Assembly: GCA_030830105.1 (NCBI GenBank)
Contig: JAURNP010000112.1
Span: forward strand, 1 to 59,079
From: Rhodothermales bacterium
Lineage (GTDB): Bacteria; Bacteroidota; Rhodothermia; Rhodothermales; UBA10348
Direction of reading: 5' to 3'
Length of the DNA stretch: 59,079 nucleotides
In this document: piece by piece, positions 46,076-58,541 of the stretch
How positions within the stretch are numbered: position 1 is the stretch's first letter
How the letters are laid out: every line of letters begins with the position of its first letter
Made by a program: the position numbers and the translations under genes
Notes under the pieces: generated by a model
The model's input: the letters and a program-made list of their open reading frames with translations, nothing else
Told to the model about the DNA's origin: nothing
Database searches by the model: none

Positions 46076-47347
46076 CTAGCCGGCAGAGGCCAAGGCCTGA
46101 TCGAACAGTTCCGCAAATCGGCGGACATCCTCGAATGAGTTGTAGAGCGGGGCTGGGGAGATTCGGATGCAATTCGGATTGCGCCAGTCGCATATCACGC
46201 CGCGTTCCTTGATATAGTAGAACACGGCACGACCGTCGTCACCGTGCACGCGCAGTGAAAGCTGGGCCCCACGCTGTTCCGGATCGGAAGGCGTCATGAT
46301 GTCGAATCCGTCTTCGATTTCCTGAAGCAGGTCCCACAGGTAACCGGTCAGCTTCATGCTCTTGGTTCGCAGGGCGCTGATCCCGACCTCGTCGAACAAG
46401 GCAAGGGACCCTTTCAGAGGTGCGGTGGACAAAATGGGAGTATTGGTCATTTGCCATCCCACAGCACCCGGTTCCGGATCGAATTCATCCACCCACTGGA
46501 ATCGGGTGGAGCGGTTGTGGCCCCACCAGCCGGCAAGACGTGGCAGATCTTTGGCGTTGGCAAAACGCTCGTGCACAAAGGCACCTCCGGGTGCGGCGGG
46601 CCCCGCGTTCAAGTATTTGTAGTGGCACCAGGCCGCGAAGTCGACATCCCAATCATGGAGCGAGAGGGGCACATTGCCCGCAGCGTGGGCCAAGTCCCAG
46701 CCTACCATACATCCCTGATCATGGCCGGCCGTCGTGATCGTCGGAATGTCAAAGAACTGGCCCGTGTAGTAGTTGACACCACTGAGCATGACCAGTGCGA
46801 TTCGATGACCTTCCGTTTTGATGGTGTCCAGGATGTCCTCCGTGCGGAGGTGATCCTCACCGTCCCGTGCCTTCTGCACGATCAAGCATTCGTTTGGATC
46901 GAATCCGTGAAAGCGGATCTGCTCCCGGAAAGCGTACTGGTCGGAGGGGAAGGTGTGCTCCTCGATCAGTATGCAGGGTCGCTGAGAGGTGGGCCGGTAA
47001 AAGGAAAGCATCAACAGGTTGATGTTGACCGTGAGGGAGTTCATCACGGCTACTTCGATCGGTTTGCACCCCACGATGCGGGCTTCTGAATCACGAAGCT
47101 CCGTACCATAATCCGCCCATGGGTTGTCACCGGTGAAGTAGCCTTCTATGCCCTTCTCAGCCCAGTCCTTCATTACGGCATCCAGCGCCTGGCCACCTTG
47201 TCTAGGCTGGAGTCCCAAGGAATTGCCGCACAGGTACAGGGTCTCCGATCCATCAGGCATACGAGGAATCGAAAACGATGCTCGATACCCAGCCAACGGG
47301 TCGCCTGCATCCAATTTTTGGGCAATCTGAGCTGGAAAACGAGACAT
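46076..47347 (-). CDS. kynU: kynureninase
   Basis: YLCGNSLGLQP, DLAHAAGNVPL and the PLP-lysine context CHYKYLNAGPAAPGGAF. Start trimmed to MSRFPAQIAQKLD... (423 aa, typical length). Confidence 0.85.
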   Translation of the reverse strand: MSRFPAQIAQKLDAGDPLAGYRASFSIPRMPDGSETLYLCGNSLGLQPRQGGQALDAVMKDWAEKGIEGYFTGDNPWADYGTELRDSEARIVGCKPIEVAVMNSLTVNINLLMLSFYRPTSQRPCILIEEHTFPSDQYAFREQIRFHGFDPNECLIVQKARDGEDHLRTEDILDTIKTEGHRIALVMLSGVNYYTGQFFDIPTITTAGHDQGCMVGWDLAHAAGNVPLSLHDWDVDFAAWCHYKYLNAGPAAPGGAFVHERFANAKDLPRLAGWWGHNRSTRFQWVDEFDPEPGAVGWQMTNTPILSTAPLKGSLALFDEVGISALRTKSMKLTGYLWDLLQEIEDGFDIMTPSDPEQRGAQLSLRVHGDDGRAVFYYIKERGVICDWRNPNCIRISPAPLYNSFEDVRRFAELFDQALASAG

Positions 47348-47618
47348 GGACAAAAAAATTTTGTGTAACGAATAGCGCCCTCGCGCTGGAGCAAAGGCCT
47401 CTTCAAGATACGTGTTTAAACTGAACGGGGGCTGCTTAACACTGTCAAATTTCGGCCCAGGAAGGGCAGAAAAGCCGTTTTCTGGTAGCGCTTCCAAATT
47501 CTTCACAGGACAGATGGTTGAATAGGAGGAACGGAGCCCCCTACCATTGTCGGTAAATCCGAGTCAGAAACGGGGTCGACGCAAGGTCGCCCTCGCGAGG
47601 ATTTTCAGAACCAACAGC

Positions 47619-47795
47619 ATGCATCGAACGATGTCCCAGCACTTCGCTTTTTCGCTAGTCGCTTCCCGGATCGGGAATGGCGTGGCCGTGGCTGCTGCTG
47701 ATGTACTGTCTCCTTCGATTGCAGTGGTTGACCGACTTGTGGCAGGCCTTGTGGTCCTGCTGTCCCTTCTAATCAGTGTGCTAATTCTCACCTGA
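47619..47795 (+). promoter_or_regulatory. candidate ILV-rich leader ORF upstream of the ilv-leu operon
   Basis: ATG-started part of the listed ORF 47547..47795. The C-terminus is ...DRLVAGLVVLLSLLISVLILT*, so 14 of the last 19 codons are Leu/Val/Ile. The stop lies 79 nt before the ilvD ATG. Confidence 0.4.
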
Positions 47796-47801
47796 TAATC
47801 C

Positions 47802-47849
47802 GGTCAACCCCACCGCATCGCGGAATCATTTGAATGCCAGGGGTTGACC
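47802..47849 (+). promoter_or_regulatory. 10-bp hairpin between the leader ORF and ilvD, with a competing upstream partner
   Basis: GGTCAACCCC (47802..47811) pairs with GGGGTTGACC (47840..47849). GGTTGACCG at 47726..47734 can instead pair with CGGTCAACC at 47801..47809. Confidence 0.4.
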
Positions 47850-47874
47850 AATCCCCAAACAACGATTCCTCCCG

Positions 47875-49593
47875 ATGTCGCGACGAAGCCATACCATTAC
47901 GAAAGGGTACCAGCGTGCTCCCCACCGGAGCCTGCTACGTGCAACGGGCGTGGTCCGCAGTGACGACGATTTCGACCGGCCCTTCATTGGGATCTGCAAT
48001 TCCTACATCGATCTGATCCCGGGTCATGTGCACCTGCAAGAATTTGGAGCCCTGGTCAAGGAAGCGGTTCGCGAGGCCGGCGGACTCCCGTTCGAATTCA
48101 ATACCATCGGCGTGGATGACGGAATTGCGATGGGGCATTTGGGCATGCGCTACTCCTTGCCCAGCCGGGAAATCATTGCTGACTCTGTAGAGACAGTCGT
48201 TCAAGCGCACTGTCTAGATGCGATTATATGCCTGCCCAACTGCGACAAGATTGTTCCAGGCATGCTGATGGGAGCGTTACGCTGCAATATTCCGGTCATT
48301 TTTGTTTCGGGTGGGCCGATGAAGGCCGGGCGCCTCCCAGACGGTCGGAAGGTCGATCTGGTGTCTGTTTTCGAAGGCGTTGGGCAGTTTTCCAACGGCG
48401 AAATCAATGAAGTGGAATTGGAGGCGTTGGAGCATCTGGCTTGCCCGACTTGTGGGTCCTGTGCCGGGATGTTCACCGCCAATTCCATGAATTGCATCAT
48501 GGAAGTGTTGGGCCTGGCGTTGCCGGGCAATGGCACCATACTGGCCATCGACCCGAAGCGCGGCGATCTTGCACGATCAGCGGCGAAGCGCATTGTGGAC
48601 ATGGTCGATGAAGGACTCAAGCCGCGGGATATCGTAACCGAAGAGGCGTTTGACGATGCTTTTGCCCTGGATATGGCCATGGGCGGGTCCACGAACACGA
48701 TCCTGCACTTGCTGGCTGCAGCTCACGAAGCCGGTGTGGACTATGATCTCGCACGCATCAACGTTATGTCCGATGGCGTACCCTACCTCTGTAAAGTAGC
48801 TCCGGCAACCCCCGACGTGCACATGGAAGATGTGGACGAGGCGGGCGGCATCCAGGCCGTTCTGGCCGAGCTGCACCTGGCTGGACTGCTGAACAGCCAC
48901 CGAGTGACGGTCACGGGCCATCCGTTGGGCCACGGCCTGGATGCCGCCCACACAAGCCGTCCAGATATCATTAAGCCGGCTTCCGATCCGTTCCGTGCGA
49001 CCGGCGGTCTTCGGGTTCTATTTGGTACCCTGGCACCGGAGGGATGCGTCGTCAAGACGGGAGCCGTAGCCGAGGATATGCACGTGTTCGAGGGAACGGC
49101 CGTCATTTTCGAAAGCCAGGATCAAGCAGTCGAAGGCATCCTGAGTGGAAGCATCGAGCCGGGTACTGTGGTTATCATTCGCTATGAAGGCCCACGCGGC
49201 GGACCGGGAATGCCTGAAATGTTGCAGCCTACATCGGCGTTGGCTGGCATGCGACTCGATCGCAGTGTGGCCATGATCACCGATGGTCGTTTCTCCGGAG
49301 GGACCCGTGGCCTGAGCATTGGACATTGTTCGCCGGAGGCAGCAGCGGGTGGTCCTATCGCGCTCGTTCAAGAGGGTGATCGCATTACGATCAACCTGCA
49401 CGACGCTTCCGTGCACTGGCATGTGGATGAGGCCGAAGCGGCACGTCGCCGCTCGGAGCTGCCGCCTTTTGAATCACGCATCCAAAGTGGCTATCTGGCC
49501 CGATACAGCCATCTCGTAACCAGTGCTTCGACCGGCGCCATCCTGCGAGTACCTGAATGGCAGCCCTCGCCCAACGAATTGTCTCCGGCCTGA
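47875..49593 (+). CDS. ilvD: dihydroxy-acid dehydratase
   Basis: [25 protein letters not shown]. 572 aa. Confidence 0.95.
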
Positions 49594-49664
49594 TCCCAGT
49601 ATCACATGGCCCTGTCCGCTCTCTCAATACAAGCCATCCATCAATCGCTTACTGCGAATATCTG

Positions 49665-51440
49665 ATGTCCCAACAAGCACACACCGCCCAGACAGCAACG
49701 GCACCTTCAGCCGACATGACCGCAACCGATCGTCCGCTCGCAACAGGTGCGGAAATCCTCATTCGTTCGTTGGAAGCCGAAGGCGTGGAGTACGTGTTTG
49801 GTCATCCGGGCGGGGCTGTAATTGCCATTTATGACGAAATGCATCGTCTTCAGCCTTCCTTCGAGCATATTCTGGTTCGGCATGAGCAGGGGGGGACACA
49901 CGCAGCAGAGGGGTATGCCAAGGCAACCGGCAAGGTTGGAACGGTCCTCGTCACCTCGGGTCCAGGCGCCACAAACTGCGTCACGGGTATCGCCGATGCA
50001 TACATGGATTCCATTCCTCTGGTCGTGTTCACCGGCCAGGTCCCCACGCACCTGATTGGCAATGATGCTTTCCAAGAATGTGACACGATAGGAGTTACTC
50101 GCAGTATCACGAAGCACAGTTTTCTGGTTCGGGACGTCACGGAGTTGGCAGCGACGGTCAAGAAGGCGTATCACCTCGCACGCACGGGTCGTCCGGGCCC
50201 GGTGGTCGTGGATCTTCCCAAGGACGTCATTGCTGCGCGCGCGCCATTCCACTATCCCGAAAATGTCCAGATTCGGGGTTACTCTGTCATAGGACGTGGA
50301 AATGTGGATCAGGTGCGCAAAGCGGCCGACATGATAGCCGCTTCGAAAAAGCCGCTGTTCTATGTAGGAGGAGGGACGATCATTTCCGGTGGTGCCGAAA
50401 AGCTAACGGCGCTGGCCCACAAAACGTCCATCCCGGTCACCACTACGCTGCATGGTCTGGGCTCTTTCCCTGAGACGGATCCGCTGTCCGTGGGCATGCT
50501 CGGGATGCACGGTACGTGGTACGCCAATATGGCGGTCCAGAACACGGATCTTCTGATCGCAGTAGGTGCACGCTTCGATGACCGCGTGACGGGCAAGATC
50601 GAAGCCTGGGCTCCGCATGCACGCATCATTCATATCGATATCGATCCGGCCTGTATCTCCAAAAACATACCGGTAGACTGCCCCATTCTGGGGGATGTCT
50701 CCATGGTGCTTGATCAATTGGAAGAACTGGTTCAGCCTGCGGATCGGAGCGACTGGCTAGGACAGATCGCTGCCTGGAGAGAGGAATGCCCGCTTATATT
50801 CGAGCGCGACGGAGCATTGCGTCCCCAACAGGTGGTGCAGGCGCTTCGAGGGAAGACAAATGGAGAGGCGGTAGTCGTAACCGACGTCGGTCAGAATCAG
50901 ATGTGGGGGGCGCAGTTCTTTTCGTACGTCCATCCTCGCAGTCACATCACGTCCGGCGGCCTCGGTACGATGGGCTTCAGTCTCCCTGCAGCCATGGGAG
51001 CTGCCTTCGGCATGCGCACGATTGGCCGGGATGTCATCTCCATCAACGGGGATGGTGGTGTCCTTATGAATATCCAGGAGCTGGGTGTTGCCGCCGCACA
51101 CAAACTGCCGCTGAAGGTGGTCATCCTCAACAACAATTTCCTGGGCATGGTGCGTCAGTGGCAGGAACTCTTCCATGAGGAGCGCTACAGCCATACCAAT
51201 CTCGAGCCAACCAATCCGGACTTCGTGAAACTGGCCGAGGCCTTCGGATGTGTCGGACTCCAGTGCACGGATCCGGCTGACGTCGATTCGACTCTCGATG
51301 CGGCGTGGGAAATCACCGACCGACCCGTCGTGATGGATTTCCGTGTCATCACCGAAGAGAAGGTTTTCCCCATGGTTCCGGCAGGTGCCGCAACCGACAA
51401 CATGATCACCGCCCAGTTCAGCCCGGAAGACTGCGCGTGA
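49665..51440 (+). CDS. ilvB: acetolactate synthase (acetohydroxy-acid synthase) large subunit
   Basis: GAEILIRSLEAEGVEYVFGHPGG, TPP motif GLGTMGFSLPAAMGA...INGDGGVLMNIQEL. Start trimmed to the ATG at 49665. Confidence 0.93.
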   Translation: MSQQAHTAQTATAPSADMTATDRPLATGAEILIRSLEAEGVEYVFGHPGGAVIAIYDEMHRLQPSFEHILVRHEQGGTHAAEGYAKATGKVGTVLVTSGPGATNCVTGIADAYMDSIPLVVFTGQVPTHLIGNDAFQECDTIGVTRSITKHSFLVRDVTELAATVKKAYHLARTGRPGPVVVDLPKDVIAARAPFHYPENVQIRGYSVIGRGNVDQVRKAADMIAASKKPLFYVGGGTIISGGAEKLTALAHKTSIPVTTTLHGLGSFPETDPLSVGMLGMHGTWYANMAVQNTDLLIAVGARFDDRVTGKIEAWAPHARIIHIDIDPACISKNIPVDCPILGDVSMVLDQLEELVQPADRSDWLGQIAAWREECPLIFERDGALRPQQVVQALRGKTNGEAVVVTDVGQNQMWGAQFFSYVHPRSHITSGGLGTMGFSLPAAMGAAFGMRTIGRDVISINGDGGVLMNIQELGVAAAHKLPLKVVILNNNFLGMVRQWQELFHEERYSHTNLEPTNPDFVKLAEAFGCVGLQCTDPADVDSTLDAAWEITDRPVVMDFRVITEEKVFPMVPAGAATDNMITAQFSPEDCA

Positions 51441-51498
51441 GCGCCGTCATCCGGAATTACCACCATTTCGAGGGCTTCGGCCCTGACCCGACCAAGCC

Positions 51499-52095
51499 AT
51501 GACAACCGACACCGCCCAGCAGGAAAGCATCGAGCTGACGCCGCAACAGCTGTTCCGGAAACAGGCCGCGGGCGAAGCTATCCTCCCCAACGAGGAAGAT
51601 TCTGTCCATCGCCATGTTATCACCGTACTGATCGATGACACGATCGGCGCCCTGAATCGGGTTACCAATCTGTTCTCGCAGCGAGGCTTCAACCTCGAAA
51701 GCGTCACGGTCGGTGAATCCAAAGATCCGACACAGCGCCGCCTGACCCTTGTCACAACCGGAAATGACCGGATCATCGCCCAGGTGCTGCGTCAGTTGAA
51801 TAGTCTCGTCGATACGACCGAGGTAGAAGACCTGACCCGCGAGGATCATGTCGAACGCGAGCTGTGCCTGGTGAAAGTCCGTAGCTCTGCGACCGAGCGA
51901 ACTGCTCTGCTGTCCGTCGTTGAGGTATTCCGCGCCAACGTGGTGAACATCACCCCTGACAGTCTCACGTTCGAGGTCACCGGGCCGACGGCGAAGATCA
52001 ACGCCTTCATCGGCGTCATGAAAGACTACGACGTACGTGAAGTGGCTCGCAGTGGCCGGGTGGCCATGCGTCGCCGGCTCGCCTTCGAACACTGA
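51499..52095 (+). CDS. ilvN: acetolactate synthase small (regulatory) subunit
   Basis: ACT domain HVITVLIDDTIGALNRVTNLFSQRGFNLESVTVG. Position directly after ilvB. Confidence 0.9.
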   Translation: MTTDTAQQESIELTPQQLFRKQAAGEAILPNEEDSVHRHVITVLIDDTIGALNRVTNLFSQRGFNLESVTVGESKDPTQRRLTLVTTGNDRIIAQVLRQLNSLVDTTEVEDLTREDHVERELCLVKVRSSATERTALLSVVEVFRANVVNITPDSLTFEVTGPTAKINAFIGVMKDYDVREVARSGRVAMRRRLAFEH

Positions 52096-52134
52096 TCCAA
52101 CCCATTTAATCTCCAACCCGACTTCTTCAGCATC

Positions 52135-53139
52135 ATGAACATGCATTACGACGCCGATCTCGGCATTATCCTGAACCGCCGCGTAGCCGTGATTGGATTC
52201 GGTAGCCAGGGCCATGCCCACGCTTTAAACCTTCACGAGAGTGGTGTGAACGTGGTAGTCGGTCTCCGTGAGGGATCGTCATCCAAGGCCGAGGTCGAAA
52301 GCCACGGTGTGGCCGTCAAATCCATCGCAGATGCAGCAGCGTGGGCCGAAGTGGTCATGATCCTGATTCCGGATCAGCACCAGAAACGGGTCTACGAGGC
52401 CGAGATCAAAGAGCACATGACGCCGGGCAAGGCCCTGGGCTTCGGGCACGGATTCAATGTGCATTACGAACAGATCGCACCGCCCGAAGGCGTGGATGTC
52501 TTCATGGTCGCCCCTAAATCACCGGGTCATCTCGTACGTCGCACCTATACCGAAGGCCGCGGTGTCCCCTGTCTGGTAGCTGTCGCTCAGGATGCGTCGG
52601 GATCGACCATGGATCTGGCTCTGAGCTGGGCCAAAGGCATTGGCGGTACGCGTGCCGGCGTGATTGAGACCAACTTCAAGGACGAAACCGAAACCGACCT
52701 GTTCGGTGAGCAGGCTGTGTTGTGCGGGGGAAGCGAAGCGCTGATCAAGGCTGGCTTCGAAACGCTGGTTGAAGCGGGCTACTCCCCGGAGCTCGCATAT
52801 TTCGAGTGTCTCCATGAGCTGAAATTGATCGTGGACCTCTATTACGAGGGAGGTCTCGAGGCCATGAATCGCTCTGTTTCGGACACCGCCGACTACGGTG
52901 GGTACTCGCGCGGTTCACGGGTTATTACAGATACTGTAAAACAGGAAATGAAGAAGATCCTCTCCGAAGTTCAGAGCGGAAAGTTTGCCAAGGAGTGGAT
53001 CGAGGAGTGCGACGCAGGATGGCCGAACATGTCTCAACTGAGAAATGCCTCGATCAATCACCCCATGGAGAAAGTGGGAGCGAAACTGCGTAGTATGATG
53101 TCCTGGCTTCGCCGCGACGAACCCGTTTCCACGTCCTGA
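52135..53139 (+). CDS. ilvC: ketol-acid reductoisomerase (class I)
   Basis: [18 protein letters not shown]-binding motif. 334 aa. Confidence 0.95.
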
Positions 53140-53162
53140 TCACGGCCTGAACGGCAGAGTGA

Positions 53163-54257
53163 ATGCCGCCCGACATGTCAGACTCGATTCATATTGTTGT
53201 CTTACCTGGAGATGGAATTGGTCCCGAAGTGACCGATTCTGCCAGGCAGGTGATGGAAGCGGCAGGTCGGCGATACGATGTAACATTTGACTGGGATGAG
53301 CACGTTTTTGGCGGTGTCGCCATAGATCACAGCGGCCATCCTTTTCCCGAAGAGACGCGGAAGGCCTGCTTGTCCGCCCACGCCATCTTGCTCGGAGCTA
53401 TCGGAGGGCCCAAGTGGGATGCTGTCGATGCAGAAATGCGTCCGGAGGCTGGTCTGCTGGCCCTGCGCAGCGTGCTCGATGCATATGCCAACCTGCGGCC
53501 GGTAAAGGTCTCGAATACTCTGGCACACCTGTCCGTGTTACCACCGGATCGCGTCGCCGGTACCGACCTCCTGGTGGTGCGCGAGCTTACCGGTGGTATT
53601 TATTTCGGGGAGCCTCGTAGGTACACGAAGGATGAAGCCTTCGACACGATGCGCTATTCAACTGGCGAGATTGACCGTATTGCTCGGATCGCCTTCGAAC
53701 AAGCGCGTGCCCGCCGCGGTCGTGTCACGTCTGTGGACAAAGCCAATGTCTTGGCTTCATCCCGGCTGTGGCGCGAATGTGTGAGTGCCGTTCATGCTGA
53801 GTCCTACTCCGATGTGGAATTGGACCACATGTACGTCGACAATGCCGCTATGCAGGTTGTTCGTGATCCACGGGCATTCGATGTTGTGCTTACGGCCAAT
53901 CTGTTTGGGGATATCCTGTCAGATCTCGCCTCTACACTGGCCGGGTCCCTCGGAGTCCTGCCATCGGCTTCCCTCGGTGGGGTTACCCCGCTGTTCGAAC
54001 CAGTCCATGGAAGCGCACCAGATCTGTCTGGCCGCGGAGAAGCCAATCCCGTGGCCGCCATTCTCAGTGGTGCCATGCTCTTGGAAGATGTCGGTCACGC
54101 CGATTCGGCCGACCTTATCCGCCGGGCTGTGGACGACACCTTGTCGGCGGGAAGTATGACCTGCGACCTCTCTGAGCAAGGGGTGTCGACGTCTGAATTC
54201 ACTGACCACGTGTGCGACGTCATTGCGCACATCCCTATTTCGCCAACCATTATCTGA
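53163..54257 (+). CDS. leuB: 3-isopropylmalate dehydrogenase
   Basis: VLPGDGIGPEV, NLFGDILSD. The start may be the ATG at 53175. Confidence 0.93.
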   Translation: MPPDMSDSIHIVVLPGDGIGPEVTDSARQVMEAAGRRYDVTFDWDEHVFGGVAIDHSGHPFPEETRKACLSAHAILLGAIGGPKWDAVDAEMRPEAGLLALRSVLDAYANLRPVKVSNTLAHLSVLPPDRVAGTDLLVVRELTGGIYFGEPRRYTKDEAFDTMRYSTGEIDRIARIAFEQARARRGRVTSVDKANVLASSRLWRECVSAVHAESYSDVELDHMYVDNAAMQVVRDPRAFDVVLTANLFGDILSDLASTLAGSLGVLPSASLGGVTPLFEPVHGSAPDLSGRGEANPVAAILSGAMLLEDVGHADSADLIRRAVDDTLSAGSMTCDLSEQGVSTSEFTDHVCDVIAHIPISPTII

Positions 54258-54264
54258 GTCCACC

Positions 54265-55878
54265 ATGTCTTCAGATCGCGTCATCATTTTCGATACTTCG
54301 CTCCGTGACGGAGAACAGGCCCCGGGAGCGGCCATGACAGTGCCGGAGAAGCTACAGCTAGCGCACCAGTTGGCGCAGTTGGGGGTTGATGTGATCGAGG
54401 CTGGGTTTCCCATTTCTTCGCCAGGGCAGTTTGAAGCGGTCCAGCGAATTGTCGCCGAGGTGGAAGGACCTACGATTTGCGCGCTGGCCCGCGCCAAGAA
54501 GGCAGATATCGACGCAGCTGGTTCGGCGCTTGAAGGGGGCAGTAATACGCGTATCCACACATTCATCGCCACGAGCGACATTCACCTGGAGAGCAAGTTT
54601 GCCGATCCCCGATATGGCAGTACGCTGGAAGAGAAGCGGGAGACCGTTTTGAGCATGGCCATTGAAGCTGTCAAGCACGCTCGCACCTACACGGACGACG
54701 TGGAATTCAGCGCCGAGGATGCCGGGCGTACAGATACCGATTATCTGTGTCGCATTGTGCAGGCGGTGATTGATGTCGGCGCAACGACCATCAATATTCC
54801 GGATACGACAGGCTACTGTATCACGGACGAATATGCGGATCTGATCCGGACGGTCATTGAGGGTGTGAATGCGTCGGATGACGTCATCTTCTCAACTCAT
54901 TGTCACGATGATCTGGGACTGGCCGTTGCCAACTCCCTGTCCGGCTTGCAGGCGGGCGCCCGACAAATAGAATGCACCATCAATGGCATCGGCGAGCGTG
55001 CTGGAAACGCCTCGCTCGAGGAAGTCGTGATGGCCCTCAATGTGCGAGCTCCACATTTTGGACTGCATACAGGTGTCAATCCGCGATTGCTCTTTCCGAC
55101 ATCGAAGATGGTTTCCACTTTTACCGGGTTCAAGGTTCAACCGAACAAGGCCATCATCGGGAAGAATGCCTTCGCCCACGAGGCCGGCATTCACCAGGAT
55201 GGGGTCCTCAAGAACCGGGAGACGTACGAAATCATGCGCGCCGAGGATGTGGGCCAAGACCCCGAATCTATTCGATTGGGAAGGCATTCGGGTCGCCATG
55301 GCCTATTTTCCCGTTTGGAACGGCTGGGCATCCGCATTGAAGAGAAAGACAAGGCGGAGGTGTACGCGAAATTCGTCGATCTGGCCGATCGGAAGAAAGA
55401 AATCAACGATTCAGACCTTATCAACCTATTCCACCACGAAGAGCATACGATGGATACCCCCCACTACTCGCTCGAGAAATTTCATGTGACCGTTGGATCC
55501 GGTCAGGAGCCCGAAGCGACTGTTGTGGTTCGCGACCTGCAGAGCGAATCGGTTACAGAGCAGAAAGCAACCGGAGATGGTCCCATCGATGCGCTGTATC
55601 GGGCCATCGATCATGCCGTCGACGAGGGGCACGACCTGGTCAATTACTCAATCCGTTCCGTGTCCGAGGGATCTGACTCGTTTGGAGAGGTAAGCGTCCT
55701 GATTGGTATGGGAGGACCACTGTTTGCCGGAAAGGCCAGCAGCACCGATGTGATCGAAGCCTCTGCACAAGCCTACATGAATGCCCTGAATTCTTTGGCC
55801 GCGTTCCGCCTGGACAAGGAGTCCATAGAGTTTGTCAGCTCCGGCATCATGCAGGCCTTCGAAAGCCCGAAAGACTAG
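54265..55878 (+). CDS. leuA: 2-isopropylmalate synthase
   Basis: IFDTSLRDGEQ, HCHDDLGLAVANSL and a C-terminal LeuA dimerisation/regulatory domain. Start trimmed to the ATG at 54265. Confidence 0.93.
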   Translation: MSSDRVIIFDTSLRDGEQAPGAAMTVPEKLQLAHQLAQLGVDVIEAGFPISSPGQFEAVQRIVAEVEGPTICALARAKKADIDAAGSALEGGSNTRIHTFIATSDIHLESKFADPRYGSTLEEKRETVLSMAIEAVKHARTYTDDVEFSAEDAGRTDTDYLCRIVQAVIDVGATTINIPDTTGYCITDEYADLIRTVIEGVNASDDVIFSTHCHDDLGLAVANSLSGLQAGARQIECTINGIGERAGNASLEEVVMALNVRAPHFGLHTGVNPRLLFPTSKMVSTFTGFKVQPNKAIIGKNAFAHEAGIHQDGVLKNRETYEIMRAEDVGQDPESIRLGRHSGRHGLFSRLERLGIRIEEKDKAEVYAKFVDLADRKKEINDSDLINLFHHEEHTMDTPHYSLEKFHVTVGSGQEPEATVVVRDLQSESVTEQKATGDGPIDALYRAIDHAVDEGHDLVNYSIRSVSEGSDSFGEVSVLIGMGGPLFAGKASSTDVIEASAQAYMNALNSLAAFRLDKESIEFVSSGIMQAFESPKD

Positions 55879-55956
55879 CAACCGAGGACCACGATTCGGG
55901 TGCATGCAGTCCTGAAGTAGGGGATGCAGGGAGCCGGATCGGTTTTACGTACAGGT

Positions 55957-57255
55957 ATGGGACAGACCATTACCCAGAAGATTCTTGCCCAGCATGCCGG
56001 GCGCGACAGAGTCGCGCCCGGAGACAACATCTGGGTCGATGTCGACACCTTGATGACGCACGATGTGTGCGGTCCACCGACCATCGGCATTTTTCAGCGC
56101 GAGTTTGGGGAAGATGCCAACGTGTGGGATCCGGACAAGCTGGTCATCCTGCCCGACCACTACATTTTCACCGAGGACCCTCACGCTCGTCGCAATATCG
56201 AGATCTTGCGAGATTTTGCCGCGAAGCACAAGCTGAAGCACTATTTCGATGTCGGAACGGCCCGCTACAAGGGGGTCTGTCACGTTGCCCTGGCCGAAGA
56301 GGGATTCAATCGTCCCGGGACCGTGCTATTCGGCACGGATAGCCACTCGTGCACATCAGGCGCCTTCGGCATGTTCTCAACCGGTGTGGGCAACACCGAT
56401 GCGGCCCTGATCATGGGGACTGGCAAGATCTGGGTGAAGGTACCGGAGACCATGCGTTTTGTGTTCGAAGGCAAGTTGCCGCCCTGGCTTATGGCCAAGG
56501 ACCTGATCCTGAGCGTGATCGGGGACATCGGGTTCGAAGGTGGGACTTACCGCGCGCTCGAGTTCGATGGTGAAGCCGTATTCGACCTGTCCATGGAAGA
56601 GCGCATGACGCTCACCAACATGGCCATCGAAGCCGGTGGAAAGAATGGCATTATCGCGGCGGACCAGAAGACGGTCGACTATGTCGAAGCACGAACGGAT
56701 GCTCCGTACGAAATGGTTTCCTCCGACTCTGACGCCCGCTACTTGTTCGAGAAAGTCTACGATGTGAGCACCATGGAGCCGGTCGTAGCCAAGCCGCATA
56801 GACCGGACAACCGGGCTGCGGTCTCGGAAGTAGCCGGTACCAAACTGGATCGTGCCTACATCGGTAGTTGCACGGGCGGCAAGTACGAGGACTTCCTTGC
56901 GGCAGCACAGATTCTGGAGGGCAACAGGGTACAGGTGGATACTTTCGTGGTGCCCGCCAGTACCGAGGTGTCAAAGCAATTACGGGAGCAGACCCTGGGC
57001 GGCAAGACGCTCTGGCAGGTCTTTCTGGATGCGGGATGCAAGATGGGCCATGCCTCTTGCGGTGCATGCCTGGGAGGTCCGGTGGATACTTTCGGTCGTA
57101 CCCATGGCACGGAGGTCGTCATTTCCACCACCAATAGGAATTTCCCCGGCAGAATGGGGTCGAAGCAATCGGCCGTGTACCTGGCGTCGCCTCTGACCGT
57201 GGCTGCGTCGGCCTTGCACGGTGAAATAACTGATCCGCGAACTGTTCTGGTGTAG
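55957..57255 (+). CDS. leuC: 3-isopropylmalate dehydratase large subunit (short, ~430-aa type)
   Basis: MGQTITQKILAQHAG, GTDSHSCTSGAFG, GSCTGG and CGACLGG Fe-S ligand regions. Confidence 0.9.
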   Translation: MGQTITQKILAQHAGRDRVAPGDNIWVDVDTLMTHDVCGPPTIGIFQREFGEDANVWDPDKLVILPDHYIFTEDPHARRNIEILRDFAAKHKLKHYFDVGTARYKGVCHVALAEEGFNRPGTVLFGTDSHSCTSGAFGMFSTGVGNTDAALIMGTGKIWVKVPETMRFVFEGKLPPWLMAKDLILSVIGDIGFEGGTYRALEFDGEAVFDLSMEERMTLTNMAIEAGGKNGIIAADQKTVDYVEARTDAPYEMVSSDSDARYLFEKVYDVSTMEPVVAKPHRPDNRAAVSEVAGTKLDRAYIGSCTGGKYEDFLAAAQILEGNRVQVDTFVVPASTEVSKQLREQTLGGKTLWQVFLDAGCKMGHASCGACLGGPVDTFGRTHGTEVVISTTNRNFPGRMGSKQSAVYLASPLTVAASALHGEITDPRTVLV

Positions 57256-57318
57256 CCGTGAATGTGCGAGCTTTCAGGACGCGCCCATTGCACTGAAATC
57301 CTGCACCCTTTTTCTGGC

Positions 57319-57384
57319 AGCATGAAAGCCTTTCTTCATCAGCATGAAAGCCTTCTTCCAATAGCATGAAAAACCGTATTGAAG
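57319..57384 (+). repeat. three tandem 22-nt units, each beginning AGCATGAAA; the third carries the leuD start
   Basis: agcatgaaagcctttcttcatc / agcatgaaagccttcttccaat / agcatgaaaaaccgtattgaag. The ATGs at 57322, 57344 and 57366 lie in three different frames. Confidence 0.9.
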
Positions 57385-57926
57385 GAAAAGCCTACGTACT
57401 CGGGGACTCGATCGACACGGATCAGATCATCCCGGCCGCGCACCTGGTCTACAGCATGACGGAGCCGGACGAACGTCGCATGTACGGGCGATATGCCTGC
57501 ACCGGGGTGCCCAATGAGCAGGCCGGTCTACCTGATGGAGGAATGCCTCTGACCGATCCCGAGGCCTGGACCAGCGAATTCAAGGTGGTCATCGCTGGAT
57601 CCAACTTCGGATGTGGCTCCTCCCGCGAGCACGCCCCTTTTGCCCTTCAGGAGGCAGGCATCGAGGCGGTGGTAGCCACTTCTTACGCCCGGATTTTCTA
57701 CCGCAATTCCGTGGATGGAGGCTTCCTGGTCCCATTTGAATCACGCGAACGCCTGGTTGAGCAAATTCGGACGGGGGATGACATTGTAATCGACGTTCCA
57801 GCAGGCACGCTGACCCAAATGCCATCGGGCGACGTATTCCTTCTCAACCCACTTGGAGACGTAGCGGATATCCTGCGTGCTGGCAACGTGTTCGAGTATG
57901 CCCGGCAGGCGGGCTTCATCAGCTGA
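57366..57926 (+). CDS. leuD: 3-isopropylmalate dehydratase small subunit
   Basis: GSNFGCGSSREHA motif. 186 aa. Follows leuC. Confidence 0.9.
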   Translation: MKNRIEGKAYVLGDSIDTDQIIPAAHLVYSMTEPDERRMYGRYACTGVPNEQAGLPDGGMPLTDPEAWTSEFKVVIAGSNFGCGSSREHAPFALQEAGIEAVVATSYARIFYRNSVDGGFLVPFESRERLVEQIRTGDDIVIDVPAGTLTQMPSGDVFLLNPLGDVADILRAGNVFEYARQAGFIS

Positions 57927-58328: not shown

Positions 58329-58375
58329 CCCTTTTGGGTTGACCCGTTTCGAGAAGAGCCGTATGTTCGCCGCCC

Positions 58376-58477: not shown

Positions 58478-58509
58478 CGTCGTCTTTTCAAGCGACTGAT
58501 TGAATGCCA

Positions 58510-58541
58510 GCGTCGACCCGTACGGGATCGGCGCTTTTTTT
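58510..58541 (+). terminator. intrinsic terminator (hairpin plus T7)
   Basis: GCGTCGACCC-gtac-GGGaTCGGCGC (10 bp including one G-U pair, one bulged A) followed by TTTTTTT at 58535..58541. Confidence 0.7.

Follow-up and report, generated by a model that had tools for sequence, protein, structure and literature searches.

The branched-chain amino acid genes of a Rhodothermales bacterium form a complete operon, ilvD-ilvB-ilvN-ilvC-leuB-leuA-leuC-leuD, within a 59,079-nucleotide (nt) stretch of DNA (contig JAURNP010000112.1, positions 1 to 59,079, here called the window), and this report concerns the RNA leader that precedes ilvD, the first gene. Between ilvD and a kynureninase gene on the opposite strand lies an open reading frame (ORF) that ends in a run of Leu, Val and Ile (ILV) codons, with the tail LVAGLVVLLSLLISVLILT (in its longer form ending in DRLVAGLVVLLSLLISVLILT at the stop). 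An earlier interpretation made from the letters of this DNA, the sequence-only reading, had described this ORF together with three complementary segments around its end, and its coordinates for the ORF, the TTG start, the ATGs, the tail, the segments, the stop codon and the ilvD ATG all agree with the sequence (Table 1). Two elements are added here, a fourth segment and a hairpin, H0, that contains the leader stop codon. The closest named relatives of the ilvD gene are found in metagenome-assembled genomes labelled Bacteroidetes (72% identity) and Rhodothermales (71%). The fold of positions 47700-47880 has a z-score of -3.35, a value equalled by 0 of 200 shuffled sequences. Additionally, the window has seven copies of the octamer GGTTGACC or its complement, where shuffles predict 2.2, and three of the seven lie within 124 nt at the ilvD leader, a clustering that exceeds chance.

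Table 1. Features of the ilvD leader and its operon (window coordinates)
Feature	Position	Strand	Remarks
Candidate promoter region	47484..47547	+	Box GGTAGCGCTTCCAAATTCTTCAC 47484-47506, -35-like TTGAAT 47518-47523, -10-like TACCAT 47542-47547
Leader ORF, 58 codons from first ATG	47619..47795	+	Second ATG 47631; frame open from TTG 47547
Segment 1, GGTTGACCG	47726..47734	+	Inside ORF just before the ILV run; complementary to segment 2
Regulatory codon run (putative)	47737..47792	+	Leu/Val/Ile 14/19 codons; run abuts the stop codon
Stop-codon hairpin H0 (ATCAG.GTG ... CAC CTGAT)	47772..47796	+	3' arm holds TGA 47793-47795; in minimum-energy fold
Segment 2, CGGTCAACCCC	47801..47811	+	Predicted partner of segment 1 or segment 3
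Small hairpin P (CCGC-AUC-GCGG, 47813-47823)	47813..47827	+	Overlaps 5' arm of AUG-pairing helix (GCAUCG 47815-47820, GGAAUC 47822-47827)
Segment 3, GGGGTTGACC	47840..47849	+	Predicted to pair segment 2 (ON) or, via its G run, segment 4 (OFF)
Segment 4, CCCC	47853..47856	+	Closes short 3:4 hairpin with TTGACC in the loop
3' arm of AUG-pairing helix (GAUUCC 47864-47869, CGAUGU 47873-47878)	47864..47878	+	Includes ilvD start codon 47875-47877
ilvD-ilvB-ilvN-ilvC-leuB-leuA-leuC-leuD	47875..57926	+	Putative regulated operon; Pfam and NCBIfam assignments

The leader is conserved among related bacteria. The sequence-only reading had proposed a comparison of the ilvD-upstream regions of related genomes; in this comparison all 23 relatives with at least 100 nt of DNA upstream of ilvD (ilvD identity 68-94%, same family and order) possess an ILV-tailed ORF ending 73-108 nt before ilvD, and the helix between segments 2 and 3 covaries. 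The best 18-codon windows of these 23 ORFs contain 11-16 Ile, Leu or Val residues, compared with 6-10 on the reverse strand. Placed side by side, the leaders share one order of parts: a GTTGACC-like segment 1 within the ORF, some 19-22 ILV codons, H0, segment 2, hairpin P, segment 3, a C run corresponding to segment 4, and the start codon. Hairpins resembling P, with changed stems, could be recognized by eye at three loci (L008, L009 and L011). A covariance model built from H0 and helix 2:3 (R1) was used to search 285 genomes of the order and matched 80 of them, in 47 of 105 genera, with one site in each of 79 genomes and two in the remaining one. Every match with enough downstream DNA (79 of 79) directly precedes ilvD (most cases), ilvB or leuB-leuA, and in all 81 matches the stop codon of the ORF lies in H0. 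In most matched ORFs, 10-16 of the final 20 residues are Ile, Leu or Val; ORFs truncated by a contig end and some ilvB-type leaders score lowest. Thus the element was not found to wander away from branched-chain genes, nor to be conserved along its whole length as a protein, two outcomes that would have counted against the sequence-only reading. At the level of sequence comparison, the conservation, covariation, geometry and operon linkage of the element are established. In the genome with two copies (G086; L158 and L163), one copy stands before an ilvD-like stretch followed by ilvB, and the other lies near a contig end with no recognizable downstream gene.

In 75 relatives the leader frame has a median open length of 74 codons, compared with 17 in control frames, and the longest ATG-to-stop lengths cluster at 50-65 codons with a median of 58. 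Over the final 22 codons of 79 distinct leaders, Leu accounts for 32.6% of residues, Val for 15.7% and Ile for 12.8% (about 61% together), while Phe (0.6%), Met (0.1%), Trp (0.2%) and Tyr (0.1%) sum to about 1%; T occupies the second codon position in 61.7% of these codons. Judged from these sequences, the composition of the tail is specific to the three amino acids made by the operon. The rest of the peptide behaves differently. When the leader ORF was compared as a protein with 41 relatives, only the nearest genome (G001) gave a match, with 57% identity over residues 24-82, and searches of the peptide against Pfam and NCBIfam returned noise and no family. By these comparisons the N-terminus is not conserved, whereas the tail and the RNA segments are.

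These properties bear on a suggestion made in the sequence-only reading, that the tail could simply be a transmembrane helix. Were the ORF a real small membrane protein with a C-terminal transmembrane helix and no sensing role, a tail of about 20 hydrophobic residues, often following an Asp, and an ORF length held near 58 codons would be natural. Typical transmembrane helices, however, are far richer in Phe, Met, Trp and Tyr than this tail, and since these four residues make up only about 1% of it a plain membrane helix is unlikely. The N-terminal two-thirds of the ORF is unconserved even within the genus, the ORF belongs to no protein family, and the element tracks branched-chain operons whichever of three different genes comes first. 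RNA pairing accounts for two recurrent features of the peptide: a Val-Asp or Ile-Asp motif, which falls on segment 1 (GTT GAC), and Ser codons (AGC, AGT), which fall on the 5' arm of H0. We therefore regard a membrane protein as a highly improbable explanation.

The codons of the tail deserve mention in their own right. Among the leaders (loci L131-L211, last 22 codons), CTT, CTC and CTA supply 502 of 566 Leu codons and ATT supplies 169 of 222 Ile codons, while the operon genes of the window use mainly CTG and ATC, a comparison in which the leader side pools many genomes. This choice of codons could reflect selection for tRNA isoacceptors strongly responsive to starvation, or a constraint imposed by RNA structure.

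The best-conserved RNA element is helix 2:3. RNAalifold returned it as the consensus helix from a structure-blind MAFFT alignment, in which 88.9% of cells are paired and 0 of 500 shuffles reach the observed values. On an alignment of 81 sequences fitted to H0 and 2:3, 96.6% of cells are paired and six of ten pairs have changed on both sides; examples of compensatory change are a position with U-A in 54 sequences, U-G in 15 and C-G in 11, and another with A-U in 48, G-U in 21 and G-C in 12. H0 follows the identity of the stop codon in this same model-fitted alignment, where 35 sequences combine TGA with a C-G pair at the middle base of the stop and 22 combine TAA with a U-A pair. Segment 2 begins 4-7 nt past the stop codon in all 80 leaders measured and, at that distance, would be covered by a terminating ribosome.

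Segments 1 and 4 provide alternative partners for segments 2 and 3, respectively. In 57.5% of leaders, a stretch located 63-99 nt ahead of the stop can form at least 7 contiguous pairs with segment 2, compared with 19% when the upstream sequence is codon-shuffled and 11% when segment 2 is reversed, and three loci show matched changes in segments 1, 2 and 3 (L139, with GATC variants, L143 and L179). As MAFFT misaligns segment 4, helix 3:4 was examined with a sequence-anchored regular expression. Its outermost pair, between the first base of segment 3 and the base after CCC, is formed in 46 of 61 distinct hairpins, with counts that include G:C 27, C:G 7, T:A 4 and G:T 6. In 44 of 60 cases that base of segment 3 complements both its segment 2 and its segment 4 partner (e.g. 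G/C/G, A/T/A), and such double covariation is what mutually exclusive pairings predict. A wider 3:4 stem was considered and dropped, the next outer pair being at chance level. The sequence-only reading had concluded that no clean four-segment model could be derived; one exists, since segment 3 also covaries with segment 4.

A conserved RNA of this kind might instead be a riboswitch, or a binding site for a protein or tRNA, in which the frame is incidental. The segments are indeed highly conserved, a palindrome-containing box lies upstream so that a protein regulator may also act, and in the actinobacterial LEU element a leader ORF is found alongside doubts about classical attenuation (PMC1262725). 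Several observations speak against this alternative: the frame is open for 74 rather than 17 codons, T recurs with a three-base periodicity at codon position 2, the enrichment is specific to Leu, Val and Ile, and the distance from the stop to segment 2 is fixed. Furthermore, the conserved nucleotides lie almost entirely in helices and the spacers vary in length and sequence, unlike a ligand pocket. A cmscan of positions 47000-48200 with all 4227 families of Rfam 15 gave no match up to E = 10, and thus none to a leader or upstream-ORF (uORF) family, including Leu_leader, Thr_leader, His_leader, Trp_leader and ilvB-OMG. We consider a ligand- or protein-binding element with an incidental frame quite improbable. 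The motif is unannotated and absent from Rfam; comparative work on Bacteroidetes attenuators may already have predicted it.

Constrained folds of the window sequence reproduce the switch expected of these segments. In the free RNA, all nine pairs of 1:2 form, none of the ten pairs of 2:3 forms, and pairing involves 7 of the 10 nt around the ilvD AUG; in the distal part of this structure the two arms of the AUG-pairing helix, GCAUCG/GGAAUC and GAUUCC/CGAUGU, are joined. Masking 47731-47758, as a ribosome stalled early in the ILV run would, abolishes 1:2 (0/9), allows 2:3 in full (10/10) and leaves 1 of 10 nt at the AUG paired. Masking 47778-47806, as a ribosome at the stop codon would, prevents both helices (0/9 and 0/10), and 7 of 10 nt at the AUG are paired. 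The statement in the sequence-only reading that 1:2 and 2:3 exclude one another holds in the alternate folds. Across the family, the AUG region has an unpaired probability of 0.38 in the OFF fold and 0.65 when 2:3 is forced (p = 2e-11), compared with 0.48 for leaders with a shuffled 5' part. In 77 of 78 leaders the first AUG comes 7-29 nt past segment 3.

Taken as a whole, we think it reasonably probable that the leader is a ribosome-mediated leader-peptide attenuator of ilvD-ilvBN-ilvC-leuBACD, with a four-segment switch and a likely translational output. That it senses branched-chain supply through a leader peptide we regard as very probable; whether its output is translational we judge to be evenly balanced. 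In this model a ribosome would read the approximately 58-codon ORF with its final 19 or so Leu, Val and Ile codons and respond to the charging of the cognate tRNAs by stalling, and its position would select among exclusive helices: 1:2, which encloses the ILV run and the stop-codon hairpin; 2:3; and 3:4, with the flanking helix that pairs the ilvD AUG region. We infer the ribosome positions, the identity of the ON state and the translational output from this arrangement. When Ile, Leu and Val tRNAs are charged, the ribosome would reach the stop and cover segment 2, which begins 6 nt downstream; segment 3 would then pair with segment 4, the flanking helix would close over the ilvD start, and on release of the ribosome 1:2 would lock the OFF state. 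When charged tRNAs are scarce, the ribosome would stall in the ILV run, and segment 1 would be held or kept apart. Segment 2 would then pair with newly made segment 3, so that 2:3 would serve as the ON, or anti-sequestor, helix, and the region from segment 4 to the AUG would remain single-stranded and permit translation of ilvD. The switch would most likely act on translation initiation, and Rho-dependent polarity along the untranslated operon may strengthen its effect.

The attenuation model of the sequence-only reading survives only in part. Its central idea, a ribosome-sensed ILV leader peptide, is strongly supported by the comparative evidence, but the roles it gave to the segments are not. 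In that model 2:3 was the terminator, and a ribosome on the distal ILV codons or at the stop would mask segment 2 and cause read-through. Helix 2:3 is the best conserved in the leader and segment 2 lies within reach of a stop-codon ribosome, which speaks for such a model; since the stop is reached when amino acids are plentiful, however, read-through would result in both states of supply. Moreover, no U tract follows segment 3, the free RNA forms 1:2 and not 2:3, segment 3 has its own covarying downstream partner, and forcing 2:3 opens the AUG region. This arrangement is very improbable.

A stronger competitor retains the sensor and changes its output, so that transcription would end prematurely at 3:4 and its flanking helix, as an atypical terminator lacking a U tract or through Rho, with no occlusion of the start. 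Of the features of a classical attenuator the locus possesses the cognate-codon ORF, the overlapping exclusive helices and the cognate operon downstream, and lacks the intrinsic terminator (a G+C-rich stem and U tract). Transcription is the step controlled by most ilv, leu and trp leaders described so far (PMC10272879; PMC1262725). The window has no excess of canonical hairpin-plus-U terminators (15, with 15.8 expected), so that atypical termination may be common in this organism; the 130-250 nt that separate the switch from ilvB in ilvB-type leaders would suit a transcriptional or Rho-type output; and the family-wide evidence for AUG occlusion is moderate. Against this, the lack of a U tract, which the sequence-only reading had recorded for the 2:3 hairpin, extends to the distal hairpin and segment 4 in every copy examined in the order; a terminator scan of the plus strand from 46800 to 48400 found nothing, and 3:4 is a stem of 4 bp with a loop of 6-9 nt. 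That the organism can build a proper terminator is suggested by an arg leader about 10 kb downstream in the window, where a hairpin is followed by T7. Additionally, a pure terminator would have no need of the near-constant placement of the AUG after segment 3. Intrinsic termination is thus probably not the output, and translational control is favoured by the missing U tract, the placement of the AUG and its lower accessibility in the OFF fold; we hold premature termination of this kind to be a less likely alternative. A C-rich stretch after segment 3 was also considered as a Rho loading site and dropped: were its exposure in the 2:3 state to cause termination, the operon would shut off when Ile, Leu and Val are scarce, the wrong polarity for a biosynthetic operon.

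Several observations weigh against the proposed translational attenuator. A length of about 58 codons is long for this class; enterobacterial leaders have 14-32 codons. The 3:4 stem consists of 4 G-C pairs around a loop of 6-9 nt, pairing at its next outer position is not above chance among the distinct hairpins, and the pair counts from the 81-sequence alignment lean toward H0 and 2:3, the helices to which it was fitted. In equilibrium folds with segment 1 masked, 2:3 exceeds P > 0.5 in only 20 of 66 leaders, and in unforced equilibrium folds across the family the accessibility of the AUG shifts little (0.35-0.36 versus 0.40). Because equilibrium folding supports it so weakly, the switch, if real, must be kinetic and decided during transcription. 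A clear complement of the AUG region, with at least 6 bp, is present in 38% of leaders, compared with 11% in shuffles. The promoter role proposed for 47484-47547 and the true start codon of the leader are putative assignments. Finally, the AUG that is occluded in ilvB-type leaders begins a short ORF of its own, 130-250 nt ahead of ilvB, and thus direct occlusion of the start of the first enzyme is not universal.

The ilvB-type leaders (L151, L161, L171, L173, L181, L183, L186, L193, L196, L200, L203-L205, L208, L210 and L211) often have this AUG just after segment 4 in the sequence CGAUGC. Traced by hand, the ORF it opens is about 68 codons long in L151, and its first residues, MLHIDAQS, look alike in two genomes of one family (L151 and L171). 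The short ORF may be a coupling uORF or a degenerate gene remnant.

The motif resembles several known attenuators in logic. The trp operon provides the four-segment model, and ilvGMEDA (ilvL), ilvBN (ivbL) and leu (leuL) are leader-peptide attenuators of enterobacteria; the erm and cat leaders illustrate translational attenuation, in which a sequestered start site is released by a stalled ribosome. Like ilvL, ivbL, leuL and trp, the present leader has a uORF rich in codons for the amino acids of its own operon and overlapping 1:2, 2:3 and 3:4 pairings, with segment 2 just past the leader stop, where in enterobacterial leaders a terminating ribosome masks it, and its set of Leu, Val and Ile codons is multivalent, for a combined ilv-leu operon. 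Its preference for the non-major Leu codons CTT, CTC and CTA over CTG resembles the use of the rare codon CUA in leuL. Unlike the enterobacterial leaders it has about 58 codons, a run of some 19-22 codons that extends to the very C-terminus, a stop codon within a conserved hairpin, and a 4-bp 3:4 helix without a U tract, with an AUG held just downstream; there is no sequence or Rfam similarity.

Closer parallels exist outside the enterobacteria. The uORF motifs ilvB-II of Corynebacterium, ilvB-OMG, and ilvB of Leptospira (Narunsky et al. 2023, PMC10272879) are, like the present one, conserved RNA motifs found once per genome before a branched-chain biosynthesis gene, with an in-frame uORF that is rich in branched-chain codons and variable in length and sequence. 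In ilvB-II a P2 stem is followed by a U stretch, forming an intrinsic terminator, and the uORF has 15-17 codons (PMC10272879); the motif described here lacks a U tract and has a far longer uORF and other conserved sequences. Seliverstov et al. 2005 (PMC1262725) reported leader peptides of actinobacteria that lack obvious terminators, as well as the LEU element upstream of leuA. Those leaders likewise combine a cognate codon run with a terminator-less structure in which the translation initiation region of the first gene takes part in the base stem, an arrangement that points to translational control. In the LEU element the Leu codons pair the Shine-Dalgarno box in a pseudoknot, and a protein factor was favoured by the authors (PMC1262725), whereas the present codon run is looped out by 1:2, its relay of four segments is trp-like, and no Shine-Dalgarno sequence takes part. 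In Staphylococcus aureus, Kaiser et al. 2018 (PMC5794164) describe a Leu-rich attenuator peptide directly before ilvD, heading an ilv-leu operon and sensing branched-chain supply, as proposed here; S. aureus belongs to a different phylum. uORF-based ilv attenuators have been described in several phyla (PMC10272879, PMC5794164, PMC1262725). The present motif is distinct in four ways: its leader of about 58 codons, a codon run that ends at the stop, a stop codon in a hairpin, and a terminator-less platform.

Leaders with ILV-rich ends are not confined to the Rhodothermales. Upstream of ilvD in 36 of 76 loci from many phyla (L051-L130), an ORF window with at least 12 ILV residues in 18 codons lies 50-244 nt before the gene, mostly at 100-170 nt, and the Ile, Leu and Val counts are bimodal (4-11 and 12-15). 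The records are labelled, among others, Anaerolineae (including Bellilinea caldifistulae, L106), Gemmatimonadetes, Marinimicrobia, Acidobacteriota, KSB1 and Deferribacteres. By sequence, then, ILV leaders before operons of this type are widespread. A rebuilt covariance model (R2) gave no match outside the order in a class-wide sample of 401 genomes, a result limited by filters or sampling; among loci fetched through ilvD, it does match ilvD-upstream regions in records labelled Ignavibacteria, Melioribacter, Calditrichota and Caldithrix abyssi. Most of the ILV-window loci in L051-L130 have no R2 match, and the loci without one probably carry other RNA architectures.

We tentatively suggest, with somewhat less than even confidence, that these matches reflect an old RNA family of the Fibrobacteres-Chlorobi-Bacteroidetes (FCB) group (Rhodothermales, Ignavibacteria, Calditrichota), in which a 50-65-codon, ILV-tailed leader and a four-segment relay would expose the start codon of the first gene or of a coupling uORF without a terminator. 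If true, this would be a natural case of a leader-peptide attenuator that senses amino acids and controls translation initiation alone. Work on leader-peptide attenuation has centred almost exclusively on Proteobacteria, Firmicutes and Actinobacteria, nearly always with intrinsic termination as the output. Bacteria of this group make little use of Shine-Dalgarno sequences; were the output translational, the four-segment logic would be seen adapted to such bacteria, and the motif would offer a simple natural system in which to study how start-codon accessibility is controlled there. The motif itself is well supported in at least 47 genera of Rhodothermales and could enter RNA family libraries and aid annotation. 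Its long leader, the placement of its stop codon in a hairpin and the fixed spacing from stop to segment 2 are design features open to testing.

The region upstream of the leader ORF contains a candidate promoter. The box at 47484-47506, also written GGTAGCGCTTCCnnATTCTTCAC, includes a near-palindrome, GGTAGC/GCTTCC, and is followed by a TTGAC-like hexamer at 47518-47523, a pattern that recurs in the family: in 11 members the box, with GTTGAC 10-12 nt later, lies 288-335 nt upstream of the leader stop, and a variant, GGAAGGGCTTCCGATTTTCAC, is present in three leuB-type leaders. The region may combine a promoter with an operator through which a protein regulator would act in addition to the attenuator. 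Together with the TACCAT at 47542-47547, the box and hexamer would place the transcription start near 47555, in which case the ATG at 47619 would be the first AUG of the transcript. The kynureninase ORF on the minus strand has two possible starts, GTG at 47506 and ATG at 47347, which differ by the region 47348-47506; the shorter version is favoured because the conserved box falls inside the longer one.

The octamer GGTTGACC also occurs upstream of the arg leader (58337-58367), where it forms the -35 part of the best sigma-70-like match of that region, TTGACC-17-TATGTT, and TTGAC-type -35 boxes may be in use in this organism. The TTGACC of segment 3 was itself considered as a -35 promoter box and rejected, since it has no -10 after it and the segment shows RNA covariation. 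An 11-mer, TTGAATGCCAG, is common to the ilv leader (47830-47840) and the arg leader (58500-58510). Among ilv leaders this 11-mer is kept only within the genus, relatives having a ATATCGAGA-like sequence in its place, and in the window it makes up the inner portion of the structure that pairs the AUG.

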